Below are positions 20,788 through 22,308 of a stretch of DNA of 32,000 bases, in pieces. Source of the DNA: Ferroglobus placidus DSM 10642 (GTDB taxonomy: Archaea > Halobacteriota > Archaeoglobi > Archaeoglobales > Archaeoglobaceae); contig NC_013849.1 of the NCBI RefSeq assembly GCF_000025505.1, positions 420,001 to 452,000 on the forward strand. The letters are read 5' to 3'. The translations under genes and the position numbers were made by a program. Below the pieces are notes generated by a model. That model saw nothing but the letters and a program-made list of their open reading frames with translations. It was not told the origin of the DNA and did not search any database. Position 1 is the stretch's first letter; every line of letters starts with the position of its first letter.

Positions 20788-20868
20788 GACTCCTTCTCAT
20801 TGTTAATTTATAGAGTAGTTTATAGAGAAGGAGGGCCGGGTTTCAGGGTTTAAACCCTTGCCACCCCC
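20788..20868 (+). ncRNA. Degenerate copy (A) of the D-arm-less tRNA-like element
   Basis: It has a 9-bp hairpin CTCCTTCTC...GAGAAGGAG, then GGCCGGGTTT, a T-arm-like CAGGG-TTTAAAC-CCTTG and CCACCCCC. It shares the 18-nt identical block GAAGGAGGGCCGGGTTTC with copy B. No convincing 5' acceptor partner, and the T-loop is non-canonical. Confidence 0.35.
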
Positions 20869-20916
20869 AGAAACTGCGCAGAGGAGATCTCCCAGAACTG
20901 CGCGAAAAACTGCAGA

Positions 20917-21025
20917 GTGGACTAATATCATCGTCTTCGTCCTCCTCAACACCTTCCCGGGTGTCCGACCTCCGGCCGGCTTTAAACGGTGGACTCGTAT
21001 CATCGTTCCCATCCTCTTTTGCAAC
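20917..21025 (-). CRISPR. Degenerate CRISPR-like mini-array, right/inverted copy (2 clear repeats, 1 spacer)
   Basis: Minus-strand repeats are GTTGCAAAAGAGGATGGGAACGATGATACGAGTCCAC (21025-20989) and GTTGAGGAGGACGAAGACGATGATATTAGTCCAC (20950-20917). They are separated by a 38-nt unique segment that itself contains a CCTCCGG hairpin-like motif. Confidence 0.35.
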
Positions 21026-21093
21026 CCCTCGCCATATGTCTCCGTTTCTGCTTAAATACCTATTTTAAGTTAAAGGGCTTCACATTAAATCCG
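21026..21093 (-). promoter_or_regulatory. Leader-like region of the right repeat array (inverted copy of 13772-13871 boxes)
   Basis: The reverse complement reads CGGATTTAATGTGAAGCCCTTTAACTTAAAATAGGTATTTAAGCAGAAACGGAGACATATGGCGAGG. It matches both left-arm boxes but lacks the roughly 45-nt segment that separates them on the left. Confidence 0.4.
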
Positions 21094-21286
21094 AGTAATT
21101 GGGAGAGAGTTCTGGCTAATTATTTATTCCCGAAACCACTAACCCATTTAACCTTGCAGAACTTGCTCTTTCCGGGCACTGATACACTTCTGCCCCTCAA
21201 CCTCAGAAAGATTTATATACTCTGTAGTGTAGTAAATTACAGTAATCATCACGCTCATAAACAAACTAACCAAGAGCAACATCCAC

Positions 21287-21530
21287 CTAGGCACCCTCCA
21301 CCAATCTCAGGTGCCCGGCCTCCGGCTGGGCGTTAAAAGGCCTGGATTGGTGGCAATCCCCCTCCGGGGGATTGGTCGGGTGCCTAGCACCCGTGGGTGC
21401 CGCCTCCGGCGGCTCAAGCTCACGGGTGCAACCCCCCGGACACCCCCTCCGGGGGTGGAAGGGGGCAGGTTGCCTCCCTCCGGGAGGCGGTAAGACTAAA
21501 GGCCCCGGAGCGCTTTGGATCGCCCGGGGG
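21287..21530 (+). ncRNA. Candidate structured RNA (about 245 nt) with five C(UCC)G-capped hairpins nested in long-range helices
   Basis: Five hairpins share one apex:
- GCCCGGCC-TCC-GGCTGGGC (21313-21331)
- CAATCCCCC-TCC-GGGGGATTG (21354-21374)
- GCCGCC-TCC-GGCGGC (21399-21413)
- CACCCCC-TCC-GGGGGTG (21441-21457)
- GCCTCCC-TCC-GGGAGGC (21472-21488)

Four long-range helices enclose them:
- CTAGGCACCC (21287-96) pairs with GGGTGCCTAG (21378-87)
- CCACCAATC (21298-306) pairs with GATTGGTGG (21345-53)
- CACCCGTG (21388-95) pairs with CACGGGTG (21421-28)
- CCCCGG (21503-08) pairs with CCGGGG (21524-29)

The strand is uncertain. One G-U pair favours plus, and TATA-like elements exist for both strands. 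Confidence 0.55.
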
Positions 21531-21719
21531 AAGGAGATGTGATACTTAGCTTTGTCTATCATATAAAACAAAAAACACCGGCCAGAAACAAAAAGAAACA
21601 AAGCCTGAAAGAAAAGTCTGAGACGAAAAAGAGACCAGAGAAAACAAAAGGAAGCAAAAAACTCGCCGAACAAAGCCGAACAGCAAAAGCAGAGTAAGAG
21701 GTAGTCGATTCTGTCATTT

Positions 21720-21875
21720 TATGATTTCCCTACCACCTGCTCCCCTCCCTACCACCCTACTTCCCTACCACTCTCGCCCCTCCCTACCACCTACCCTCCA
21801 ACATCCAAACCCCTACCACTCCCCTACCACTTCCCACCTCCCACCTTCCACACTGACCCAACATACCTCTCACTA
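21720..21875 (+). repeat. G-poor C/T/A tract (CCCTACCAC units), copy 2, abutting the tRNA-like gene
   Basis: CCCTACCAC(C/T)-type units. It shares the 19-nt core ACCCTCCAACATCCAAACC with copy 1. The complementary strand is rich in GGG/GGGG runs. Confidence 0.7.
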
Positions 21876-21971
21876 TATGCCGTGGCTCAGCTGGCAGAGT
21901 GGGTGACTTGTGACCTGTAACCCAGGTCGCAGGTTCAGTGAGTTCAGCTGGTTCAAGTCCCGCCGGCACCT
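21876..21971 (+). tRNA. Aberrant tRNA-like gene: the 5' half looks like tRNA-Thr(UGU), the 3' half has extra segments (intron-containing gene or pseudo-tRNA)
   Basis: Canonical elements are present: U8, the D-arm GCTC-AGCTGGCA-GAGT with A14/G18G19/A21, the anticodon loop CTTGTGA (anticodon TGT at 21909-21911), the T-loop GGTTCAAGTCC, and a T6 run directly after the 3' end. Several parts do not fit. Only 5 of 7 acceptor pairs form (TGCCG/CGGCA). No clean 3' anticodon-stem strand exists (the best is TCAGT at 21935-39 if about 21 nt are removed). The T-stem has one mismatch. GGTTCA and TGT(G/A)ACC are locally duplicated. Confidence 0.45.
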
Positions 21972-22017
21972 CTTTTTTGGAGTTTGGGTAACGATCCCCA
22001 TAAAAGGAGGTGGTCGT

Positions 22018-22179
22018 ATGCCAGTTGACATTGTAACTCAGGCCGTTTGTAAGGCTGTCGCAGTACTGGCCATTGGTCAGTTAGTTGCGACAGCCGTAAT
22101 TCTCAGACTTCTGTTATACTTGAAGGTGCTGCCACCAGTTTCTGCAGAAGACTACAGGAAAAAACAGGAAAAAAGCTGA
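22018..22179 (+). CDS. Small single-pass membrane protein (53 aa)
   Basis: ATG at 22018 lies 5 nt after AAGGAGGTGG. Product is MPVDIVTQAVCKAVAVLAIGQLVATAVILRLLLYLKVLPPVSAEDYRKKQEKS. The longer 21910 start would read through the tRNA-like gene. Confidence 0.6.
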   Translation: MPVDIVTQAVCKAVAVLAIGQLVATAVILRLLLYLKVLPPVSAEDYRKKQEKS

Positions 22180-22224
22180 GCGTTAACCCGGATTTTTTGG
22201 GTTTTTAAATTTTTGAAGCTCCAT

Positions 22225-22308
22225 GGGGGCGGATCCCGGACTCCTTCTCCTGTGCAATTTACAGGGGAAGGAGGGCCGGGTTTCCGGGTTCGAATCCCGG
22301 CCGCCCCC
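22225..22308 (+). ncRNA. D-arm-less tRNA-like element, copy B (acceptor/T-arm minihelix plus long hairpin); also a candidate att site
   Basis: An 8-bp acceptor pairs GGGGGCGG (22225-32) with CCGCCCCC (22301-08). The T-arm CCGGG-TTCGAAT-CCCGG has a canonical T-loop. In place of the D and anticodon arms there is a CCCGG/CCGGG stem that carries a 13-bp hairpin, CTCCTTCTCCTGT-GCAATTT-ACAGGGGAAGGAG, with one G-U pair on the plus strand. It ends 21 nt before the first gene of the downstream element. Confidence 0.5.

Follow-up and report, generated by a model that had tools for sequence, protein, structure and literature searches.

A tRNA-like element of Ferroglobus placidus DSM 10642, here called TLE-B, shares its core with four metagenomic loci, each of which carries a 38-nt minihelix (GGGGCGG-N6-CGGGC-N8-GCCCG-CCGCCCC) on the strand of the downstream genes. 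This four-locus minihelix is a new result of this analysis, and from the sequence comparisons we read TLE-B as a lineage-specific elaboration of a conserved cis-acting leader RNA. An initial annotation of the window, by which we mean the whole 32,000-nucleotide stretch of F. placidus DNA that was analysed, had described direct repeats of a D-arm-less tRNA-like element, copy A and copy B (the latter being TLE-B), and had offered two readings of them, as scars of integration or as processing signals within transcripts. The fold of copy B is probably a conserved control or processing signal rather than an integration scar, and copy A is a decayed paralog of the entire element, not a duplicate of a 3' half.

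Structure and setting of the two copies

Copy B lies at 22225-22308 on the plus strand, with the position and fold that the initial annotation gave it, and its MFE fold is a three-way junction. Its parts, the flanking features and copy A are as follows.

20771..20875, plus strand: copy A, paralogous to the entire element but decayed (5' acceptor strand lost, duplication within the hairpin, T-loop mutated)
22193..22214, plus strand: T-runs and the A/T-rich box TTTTTAAATTTTT (22202-22214), as read from the sequence, between an upstream 53-aa ORF and TLE-B
22225..22308, plus strand: TLE-B, the intact tRNA-like element, a three-way junction (MFE fold)
22225..22232, plus strand: 5' strand of the acceptor-like stem, GGGGGCGG, 8 bp, paired with 22301-22308
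22235..22280, plus strand: long arm, a 5-bp stem (22235-22239 with 22276-22280) bearing a 14-bp hairpin (22241-22273)
22284..22300, plus strand: T-arm, CCGGG-UUCGAAU-CCCGG, with a canonical T-loop and zero bases between it and the acceptor 3' strand
22301..22308, plus strand: 3' strand of the acceptor-like stem, CCGCCCCC, paired with 22225-22232
22309..22332, plus strand: 21-nt leader with the Shine-Dalgarno sequence AAGGAG, then the ATG at 22330 that opens a co-directional cluster

The fold contains 32 base pairs and no mismatch. Its MFE of -59.3 kcal/mol (z -6.15) was equalled by none of 200 shuffles, the minus strand folds less stably (-52.9 versus -59.3 on the plus strand), and at 85 C the same MFE fold is kept at -17.4 kcal/mol. 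The hairpin at 22241-22273 has 14 bp and a 5-nt loop in the MFE fold, or 13 bp and a 7-nt loop once the closing G-U pair is opened. The initial annotation was right that non-Watson-Crick pairing in copy B takes the form of G-U on the plus strand but undercounted it, since the MFE fold holds two such pairs, both G-U on that strand, rather than one. The tRNA-like traits are the T-loop UUCGAAU, which conforms to UUCRANY, the G53:C61 pair and the 8/5 stacking of acceptor and T-arm; the 21-nt 3' half is shared with a true tRNA-Trp of a phage. Between copies A and B, at 21878-21968, lies a pseudo-element of tRNA origin in which pieces of a T-arm are duplicated.

Neither copy is recognised by a tRNA finder or by an Rfam family. 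ARAGORN reports no tRNA gene and no tmRNA in the window, the canonical tRNA model (RF00005) matches neither copy even at E <= 10, and no Rfam family accepts copy A or copy B, tmRNA being without an Rfam match on either. The top Rfam match of copy B, by both score and E-value, is to mascRNA-menRNA (RF01684; 24.6 bits, E 0.048, 22273-22307), below the gathering threshold of 42.5, and the match to tRNA-Sec (RF01852; 21.7 bits) is below its threshold of 47; these sub-threshold matches depend on the acceptor and T-arm alone. The fold has no D-arm, and the loop of the long arm has no U33. An intron-bearing tRNA was considered and rejected, as there is no bulge-helix-bulge motif and removal of the hairpin still yields no D-arm, as was an intrinsic terminator, since no T-run lies 3' of the element.

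As initially annotated, copy B ends 21 nt upstream of the ATG at 22330; 10 nt separate it from its Shine-Dalgarno sequence. In the fold of 22225-22335 the leader from 22309 onward is unpaired, Shine-Dalgarno sequence included, and the latter is also free at 85 C. The first gene of the cluster encodes 135 aa and is called as such on assembled contigs. The strain has also been assembled as Logan contigs, which either match the window exactly or depart from it by only two 1-nt gaps and so contribute no variation; protein variants in the clusters of these contigs look like sequencing frameshifts. Two assemblies break at the far end of the cluster, about 33 kb to the right of TLE-B.

Upstream of the element, 22193-22214 is a candidate terminator and/or TATA box. 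The sole A/T-rich box on this side lies 11-23 nt before 22225, less than the usual archaeal distance from TATA box to transcription start; at the usual spacing the RNA would begin inside or just past the 5' strand of the acceptor stem, which is a caveat for an RNA leader. The T-runs are archaeal terminator signals, and these too count against an RNA leader. A similar box, TTTATTTGATT, is found near the element in the metagenomic relatives.

Copy A is located, as the initial annotation had it, after the last gene of the cassette bounded by inverted repeats, between that gene's stop codon (20758) and the right inverted repeat (20916-21099), and the region is rich in mobile-element features. The two copies are homologous beyond chance: nhmmer aligns 20771-20875 with 22215-22315 at E 1.4e-10, a covariance model built from copy B gives copy A 27.1 bits (E 5e-4), and identity is 75% over 100 aligned nt, the similarity spanning the whole element and about 10 nt of flank on each side. 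The 18-mer GAAGGAGGGCCGGGTTTC is found in the window exactly two times (0.03 expected); an identical run of this length within the alignment has a permutation P of 0.08 and is compatible with randomly placed mismatches. Copy A has decayed: 7 nt are deleted, with loss of most of the acceptor stem's 5' strand, 11 nt of the hairpin are duplicated in tandem, and the T-loop has mutated to UUUAAAC. Its T-stem pair 50:64 is A-U, where copy B has C-G. Neither nhmmer nor the covariance model finds a third copy within the window or 8.6 kb beyond it.

A minihelix at four metagenomic loci

The four metagenomic loci are kin to the window through the downstream DUF6744-MoxR-vWA cluster, with identities to the window of about 51% for DUF6744 and 77-80% for MoxR, and this cluster is probably a mobile element. 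At each locus the minihelix sits 1-17 nt before a G-rich Shine-Dalgarno sequence, which is followed by the ATG of the cluster's first gene. The inner 7 bp of the acceptor stem, GGGGCGG/CCGCCCC, are the same in copy B and in all four relatives (7/7 pairs), and in the relatives the 5-bp stem adjoins this 7-bp stem to give a tRNA-like 7/5 stacking. This pair of stems arose in none of 300 shuffles of locus L013 or of locus L011, and at about 40% G+C in the relatives a minihelix hairpin of 70% G+C stands out.

The long arm is specific to F. placidus. In the covariance model 46 positions of it align to 1 nt in the relatives, the 3' part of the arm, GGGCCGGGTTTCCGGG, aligns with the relatives' 5' strand and junction, and the outer arms are separated by 24 bp in the relatives versus 68 bp in F. 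placidus. The relatives' loop, UGAAACAC, of 8 nt, does not have the form of a T-loop, and at 53:61 they have C:G. The label D-arm-less tRNA suits only the F. placidus version; what is conserved is a minihelix of acceptor and T-arm. The idea of a K-turn or L7Ae site was rejected, since the CUGA of the relatives' loop is not kept in F. placidus.

The structure is kept despite sequence change. In the T-stem, pairs 50:64 and 53:61 have opposite orientations in the F. placidus and the metagenomic lineages, one G-U pair occurs in L010, and an A-U pair in copy A. All three wobble pairs (3/3) are G-U on the strand of the downstream genes. This comparative support comes from two independent lineages, the four metagenomic loci being about 80% identical in this intergenic region. 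On its own, the covariance model gives the relatives weak matches (13-15 bits, E about 1), and nhmmer, which uses sequence only, does not link TLE-B to the relatives; the link is seen only with a structure-aware model and the stem pattern.

The genes around the element differ between the lineages. BLASTP finds no homology between the 135-aa protein and the first gene of the relatives' cluster, and the idea that the two are homologs was dropped. Relative to the element, a csx3-type gene is upstream in the metagenomic loci and downstream in F. placidus. A link to an HxHxDH protein encoded two genes downstream in the relatives was rejected, this protein having no Pfam match and being absent from F. 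placidus.

The window has no match in phage and plasmid collections, IMG/VR holds nothing relevant for the element, the minihelix, DUF6744 or MoxR, and a metagenome scan for the F. placidus-type junction gave no matches; the only minihelix-pattern match in IMG/VR, L018, is a chance hairpin in DNA of 73% G+C. A pattern that demanded C73 found no tRNA of the 8-bp acceptor form among 185,579 species representatives, the complete genome of F. placidus lying outside the search; a tRNA with the 7-bp acceptor and another discriminator base was beyond the reach of this pattern. Two genome-scan matches were rejected as chance, lying in bacterial DNA that looks protein-coding and is not called tRNA by ARAGORN.

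A proposed leader RNA and its alternatives

The same-strand minihelix of the relatives, together with the flipped pairs and the G-U wobbles, leads us to read copy B as an elaborated conserved leader. Of the two readings first proposed, that of a tRNA-like element within a transcript gains ground from the conserved core, from its same position at four loci and from wobbles that are G-U on the coding strand only. The self-folding 46-nt insertion leaves the outer helices intact, which would be tolerable for a folded single strand. As in t-elements, about 12 bp are stacked (8/5 in F. placidus, 7/5 in the four relatives) on the strand of the genes and adjoining a coding region. The account that we prefer, at somewhat less than an even chance, is that of a conserved, cis-acting leader RNA whose F. 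placidus form is TLE-B, a tRNA-minihelix mimic that would shape the operon mRNA via tRNA enzymes. We infer that this leader is most likely cleaved by RNase P and tRNase Z, which would set the 5' end of the mRNA.

The conserved core would then be a thermostable mimic of an acceptor/T-arm minihelix, a 7-bp stem stacked on a 5-bp stem, with its 3' strand unbroken and its 5' strand broken at the place that the D and anticodon arms occupy in a tRNA; in F. placidus this break would be filled by an extra, self-contained hairpin arm and the loop would be a canonical T-loop. Co-transcribed with the operon, the element would be cleaved on its 5' side by RNase P of the host and past the discriminator base, at about 22308, by tRNase Z. 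The product would be a stable tRNA-like RNA of about 84 nt, and the remaining operon mRNA would have a short defined 5' end about 20 nt before the ATG, with its Shine-Dalgarno sequence, uncoupled from upstream transcription. Copy A would be a non-functional duplicate in decay. F. placidus possesses RNase P RNA (genome paper, PMC3236036), in Haloferax, RNase P and tRNase Z cleave tRNA-like elements within transcripts (PMC4946936), and mRNA ends in plant mitochondria are set by t-elements (PMC1920247).

The conserved part is, in both lineages, a compact GC-rich hairpin that immediately precedes the Shine-Dalgarno sequence; it is stable at 85 C and leaves that sequence free, and the relatives' loop is not a T-loop. 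These features would also suit a 5' stem-loop that acts without tRNA enzymes, shielding the operon mRNA from 5'-to-3' exonucleases at 85 C or keeping the Shine-Dalgarno sequence accessible, the tRNA-like look of the F. placidus copy being incidental. In the relatives the CCGCCCC 3' strand can alternatively pair with the GGGGG Shine-Dalgarno sequence, so that a translational switch is conceivable there; no such pairing is possible in F. placidus, however. Such a stem-loop also leaves unexplained the 7/5 geometry and unbroken 3' strand in both lineages and the exact canonical T-loop and G53:C61 of F. placidus, and we consider it unlikely.

Slightly less likely again, in our view, is that the copies are tRNA-derived attachment sites left by mobile-element integration, in which case the relatives' minihelix would be the attP carried by the free element. 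The two copies are direct, lie 1.44 kb from each other and share the element and only about 10 nt per side, the 3' half of copy B falls within real tRNA sequence space, the pseudo-element at 21878-21968 lies between them, and mobile-element features are abundant in the region. The strain was deposited as plasmid-bearing and the genome has no plasmid, and the same acceptor stem across hosts would be natural if the target were a conserved tRNA. However, the match between the copies extends over the entire element, and copy A has decayed to either side of the identical block; recombination inside the block would not yield one perfect and one degraded site. This, the non-significant 18-nt run (P 0.08) and the lack of an integrase or a third copy mean that the integration-scar reading first proposed gains no support: no integrase was found by Pfam among the scanned long ORFs of the window, L011 and L013 or among the recorded Pfam hits of L006 genes, no recombinase is encoded in the 1.44 kb separating A and B, and no third copy occurs in the window and the 8.6 kb beyond. 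In the relatives both acceptor strands lie only 24 nt apart in a compact hairpin, which is not a fragment of a tRNA gene (an att copy of a tRNA 3' half would not have both strands), and the differing position of the csx3-type gene fits an element internal to the cluster. The scan of species representatives for the 8-bp-form tRNA, with C73 required, likewise supplied no source.

Invariance of the outer 7-bp arms, with variation confined to the inner stem, suggests a sequence-specific reader, and TATA-like A/T boxes lie directly upstream in both lineages, such that one arm may fall between TATA box and transcription start. It is nonetheless improbable that the element works at the DNA level, as nested inverted repeats by a promoter that serve a dimeric regulator as operator or that form a cruciform or hairpin (e.g. 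for replication). The change in outer-arm spacing from 24 bp (relatives) to 68 bp (F. placidus) would not be tolerable for a duplex operator, the insertion forms a perfect hairpin of its own, the changes in the inner stem are compensatory flips, and the wobbles are G-U on the plus strand only (3/3).

Very improbable is the further proposal that the released RNA of about 84 nt is a trans-acting tRNA mimic of the mobile element, CCA-tailed and perhaps charged, or a decoy or sensor for those enzymes or defences of the host that are directed at tRNA; its identity would then be determined by the invariant acceptor stem, and a tRNA-His-like G(-1):C73 might allow it to be charged. Equally doubtful is a degenerate or non-canonical tRNA gene or pseudogene that lost its D and anticodon arms, has no present function and was kept by chance: the acceptor and T-arm are tRNA-like, a tRNA pseudo-element is close by and copy A is plainly decaying, but copy B keeps 32 bp with zero mismatches though its paralog decayed, the core is kept in relatives of about 40% G+C where a 70% G+C hairpin is conspicuous, and its constant place ahead of the Shine-Dalgarno sequence argues for function.

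Known tRNA-like systems and implications

The leader RNA that we favour most resembles t-elements, which in Haloferax volcanii (PMC4946936) and plant mitochondria (PMC1920247) are, like TLE-B, mimics of acceptor and T-arm in or near mRNAs. Where tested, t-elements are cut by RNase P and tRNase Z and define RNA ends, and the position of TLE-B before a coding region agrees with this. There is no sequence kinship, and the host of TLE-B is a hyperthermophile of the Archaeoglobales, with the element in a probable mobile gene cluster; the F. placidus form differs further by a 19-bp arm that replaces the D and anticodon arms, and in the relatives the element is no more than a 38-nt minihelix that lacks a T-loop.

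The tRNA-like mascRNA and MEN-beta RNAs are excised from a longer transcript by RNase P and RNase Z; the mascRNA family (RF01684) is vertebrate nuclear, and its likeness to TLE-B is thus by analogy only. Bacterial tRNA-Sec (RF01852) has an 8-bp acceptor on a 5-bp T-stem, the same as TLE-B, with a weak full-length alignment (21.7 bits), and the extra acceptor pair of TLE-B, G(-1):C73, is of the tRNA-His type. In contrast to tRNA-Sec and tRNA-His, TLE-B has no D-arm, variable arm, UCA or GUG anticodon or U33, and its arm is roughly twice as long as an anticodon arm; we know of no use of Sec in relatives of F. placidus. The tRNA-like domain of tmRNA combines acceptor, T-arm and a long helix at the place of the anticodon stem (PMC3985003), as does TLE-B. 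Bacterial tmRNA differs from TLE-B by G3:U70, an mRNA-like reading frame and pseudoknots. To our knowledge, tmRNA is absent from archaea.

Archaeal integrative elements (SSV-type and pTN3/TKV-type) target tRNA genes as att sites, and these, like copies A and B, are direct repeats with tRNA-like sequence amid mobile-element features. Copies A and B differ from them in being diverged copies of a whole element rather than an identical 3'-half core, in the lack of an integrase in the scanned ORFs, and in that the form conserved in the relatives is a hairpin holding both acceptor strands. If the copies were att sites nevertheless, the element would be a tRNA-like integration target that is not a tRNA; if the RNA acted in trans, it would be a new RNA class in archaeal mobile elements.

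Processing signals in mRNA that resemble tRNA are documented in plant mitochondria and one haloarchaeon and are hardly explored in other archaea. The analysis adds a conserved minihelix leader, as we read it, in probable mobile clusters of hydrothermal archaea, with its form as a three-way junction in F. placidus DSM 10642, which can be cultivated. A plausible path is that of a bare minihelix growing towards a tRNA-like molecule, which would bear on the origin of tRNA-like structures. If the leader reading is true, a mobile element would use the tRNA-maturation enzymes of its host to shape its own mRNA at 85 C.

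The tRNA-like element and its upstream repeat

The initial annotation described a tRNA-like element lacking a D-arm, and the computed fold bears this description out exactly, with the following parts:

22225-22308, plus strand: copy B, the intact tRNA-like element
Copy B, part 1: an acceptor-like stem of 8 bp, followed by two unpaired bases
Copy B, part 2: a 5-bp stem bearing a hairpin of 14 bp, or of 13 bp and a 7-nt loop when the closing G-U pair is opened, followed by UUU
Copy B, part 3: a T-arm, CCGGG-UUCGAAU-CCCGG, directly adjoining the acceptor 3' strand

The plus strand folds at -59.3 kcal/mol (z -6.15) and the reverse strand more weakly (-52.9); the minimum fold is unchanged at 85 °C (-17.4). 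F. placidus AEDII12DO, DSM 10642, is a hyperthermophile with a genome of 44.1% G+C (PMC3236036), and the window has about 49% G+C. ARAGORN found neither a tRNA nor a tmRNA in the window, and Rfam at its gathering thresholds gave no match to the tRNA-like copies. Under relaxed Rfam settings copy B matches mascRNA at 24.6 bits (threshold 42.5) and tRNA-Sec at 21.7 bits (threshold 47), with only the acceptor and T-arm being picked up. The long arm is without a tRNA-type anticodon loop.

Copy A, proposed as a diverged repeat about 1.44 kb upstream, is truly related to copy B: nhmmer aligns 20771-20875 with 22215-22315 (E 1.4e-10), spanning the entire element and about 10 nt on either side, and a covariance model of copy B scores copy A at 27.1 bits. 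A 7-nt deletion has removed the greater part of its acceptor 5' strand, 11 nt of its hairpin are duplicated in tandem and its T-loop is mutated; copy A is a dead duplicate. As first placed, it lies beyond the last gene of the upstream cassette; this cassette is 7.3 kb long, and its right inverted repeat follows copy A. Three short direct repeats (AACTGCGC, AACTGCGC, AACTGCAG) are located at 20869-20915, between copy A and the inverted repeat.

A minihelix ahead of related gene clusters

The 3' end of copy B was correctly positioned 21 nt ahead of a start codon with a Shine-Dalgarno sequence, the ATG at 22330. From here rightwards, over more than 18 kb, all called genes but two are on the plus strand, and this cluster encodes a Csx3-type protein, DUF6744, two AAA/MoxR and vWA pairs, and DUF2201. 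The cluster is probably part of a mobile element, because the annotated relatives of DUF6744 lie only in plasmids, large phages and haloarchaeal tailed viruses. The Csx3-type protein (102 aa, 27064-27372; Pfam Cas_csx3, recorded on assembled contigs) has homologs in all related loci. Csx3 proteins are ring nucleases and, if this one is too, it could counter type III CRISPR defence, a role that would support a mobile-element origin. Upstream of copy B are a 53-aa ORF, a short hairpin and several T-runs, which precede the sole A/T-rich box (22202-22214, 11-23 nt from the 5' end of copy B); standard archaeal spacing from this box would put the RNA start inside the acceptor 5' strand. In other assemblies of this strain the sequence matches that of the window either fully or with two 1-nt gaps as the sole difference.

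A library-wide HMMER search with DUF6744 returned a few close homologs, and alignment with the closest of these then yielded eight metagenomic loci, five of them long and sharing with the window DUF6744 (~51% identity) and MoxR (77-80%). The covariance model of copy B gave weak matches (13-15 bits) in three of these five, all on the gene strand and 4-6.7 kb upstream of DUF6744, and in four loci a pattern search revealed the same element, 38 nt long. In L013, one of these loci, it reads GGGGCGG-UUUCUC-CGGGC-UGAAACAC-GCCCG-CCGCCCC. The relatives' element folds into 7-bp and 5-bp stems whose 3' strand runs through unbroken and whose 5' strand has a 6-nt bulge. A tRNA acceptor/T-arm minihelix has this geometry. 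The loop of the relatives' element is not a T-loop. None of 300 dinucleotide shuffles of L013 produced such a stem pair, nor did any of 300 of a second locus, L011 (both ~40% G+C). The element is intergenic, has a similar A/T-rich box nearby, and is followed at 1-17 nt by a G-rich Shine-Dalgarno sequence and then the ATG of the first co-directional cluster gene, the same position before the cluster as that of copy B. The first genes after the element have no detectable homology between F. placidus and the relatives. The relatives' second gene (L013 6270-6854, L011 7002-7586, and ~5000-5600 in a third locus, L010) encodes a ~194-aa protein whose HxHxDH motif is reminiscent of nucleases with the metallo-beta-lactamase fold; the protein matches no Pfam family, and F. 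placidus lacks it.

The structural comparison takes in two independent lineages. The relatives' outer stem and the inner 7 bp of the copy B acceptor have the same sequence, and acceptor pairs are invariant between F. placidus and the relatives, whereas T-stem pairs 50:64 and 53:61 are flipped. The L010 element has one G-U pair, copy A has A-U in place of a C-G of copy B, and each of the three wobble pairs in the comparison reads G-U on the coding strand. A 46-nt arm, present in F. placidus only, occupies the 5' bulge and folds on itself, and the outer helices are thus undisturbed. MAFFT aligns the relatives' 5' strand and junction to an internal segment of copy B, GGGCCGGGUUUCCGGG, which suggests that copy B derived from a bare minihelix via a 5' extension supplying a new acceptor strand. 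The finding is real: what is conserved is a tRNA-minihelix-like leader, and the 'D-arm-less tRNA' of F. placidus is its locally elaborated form.

Possible integration scars and the surrounding sequence

The two copies had also been read as attL/attR scars of serial integrations into a tRNA-like target, which we consider unlikely. A 21-nt 3' half identical to that of copy B does occur in a real phage tRNA-Trp, and a tRNA-derived pseudo-element lies between the copies. However, the 18-nt block shared by the copies is not significant (P 0.08 given 75% identity over 100 aligned positions), and copy A, a decayed copy of the whole element, has deteriorated to either side of it, while copy B is perfect. 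There are two copies only, with no third in the window or the 8.6 kb past its right end. A genome-wide pattern demanding the 8-bp acceptor that ends in C73 matched no tRNA among 185,579 species representatives; a normal tRNA with a 7-bp acceptor would escape it. No recombinase was found in the sequence checked, and no integrase among the ORFs Pfam-scanned (window, L011, L013) or the Pfam records for genes called on the related locus L006. In the relatives a single hairpin contains the two acceptor strands at a distance of 24 nt, unlike anything expected of a copied tRNA 3' half. Their csx3-type gene is located upstream of the element, that of F. placidus within the cluster; this arrangement fits an element internal to the cluster. 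An intron-bearing tRNA was rejected for copy B for lack of a bulge-helix-bulge motif.

Several other features lie between and around the copies:

21878-21977: a second tRNA-derived element with acceptor, D-arm and T-arm (GGTTCAAGTCC), a 12-bp hairpin in place of the anticodon arm, duplicated T-arm pieces and a TTTTTT run directly after; Rfam tRNA 14.6 bits (threshold 29)
21285-21545, plus strand: a GC-rich, highly structured region (-163.8 kcal/mol, z -6.3) with five N5-UCC-N5' hairpins (motif CCTCCGG, plus strand only; sixth motif copy at 20969) whose stems differ through compensatory changes
21726-21850, 11449-11772 and 12521-12850: C-rich short tandem or interspersed repeats of CCCTACCAC, CCCTACCGTGCTAC-type and 12-nt CATCAACC units, respectively, in regions that are non-coding or whose ORFs are doubtful
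13766-14117 and 20916-21099: imperfect inverted repeats (~180-350 bp) bounding the 7.3-kb cassette, with four (left) and two (right) GTGGACTCGTATCAT motifs
13360-13450, 16507-16698 and 17680-17865: clusters of iteron-like, in part palindromic repeats of ACCGGGGGTTAAT and its variants, within the cassette and immediately beyond it
11071-11346: a 91-aa ORF matching only the C-terminal end of phage family phrog_9185 (E 5e-15, profile 190-255 of 257)

The second tRNA-derived element could be what remains of a genuine tRNA integration target, or else another tRNA-like RNA. For the structured region, which matches no Rfam family and is lacking in the related loci, a non-coding RNA or a structure in single-stranded DNA is possible. 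A 478-aa winged-helix protein weakly similar to phage replication initiators is encoded in the cassette, which has no recognisable transposase, and assembled contigs of the strain break within its left inverted repeat. The iteron-like clusters might serve in a replication origin or as sites bound by a regulator. Since the deposit of the strain was described as 'containing plasmid XY' and the finished genome has no plasmid (PMC3236036), the iteron-bearing region could be that plasmid, integrated. The 91-aa ORF looks like a truncated gene fragment.

A proposed tRNA-minihelix-like RNA leader

Structure, conservation, position and strand polarity together argue for a structure selected in a single strand, that of the coding sense, and conserved within the gene cluster. 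Minihelices are substrates of both RNase P and tRNase Z. The best, though tentative, explanation is that copy B serves as a cis-acting RNA leader: it would mimic a tRNA minihelix and be cleaved by both enzymes, and we infer both transcription through the element and this cleavage. Precedents are the Haloferax tRNA-like elements that RNase P and tRNase Z process (PMC4946936) and the t-elements of plant mitochondria (PMC1920247). The element, which is not in Rfam, would belong among the tRNA-like elements in transcripts. If it is transcribed through and the mimic is cut, cleavage would fix the 5' end of the operon mRNA ~20 nt ahead of the start codon and would set free a stable tRNA-like RNA.
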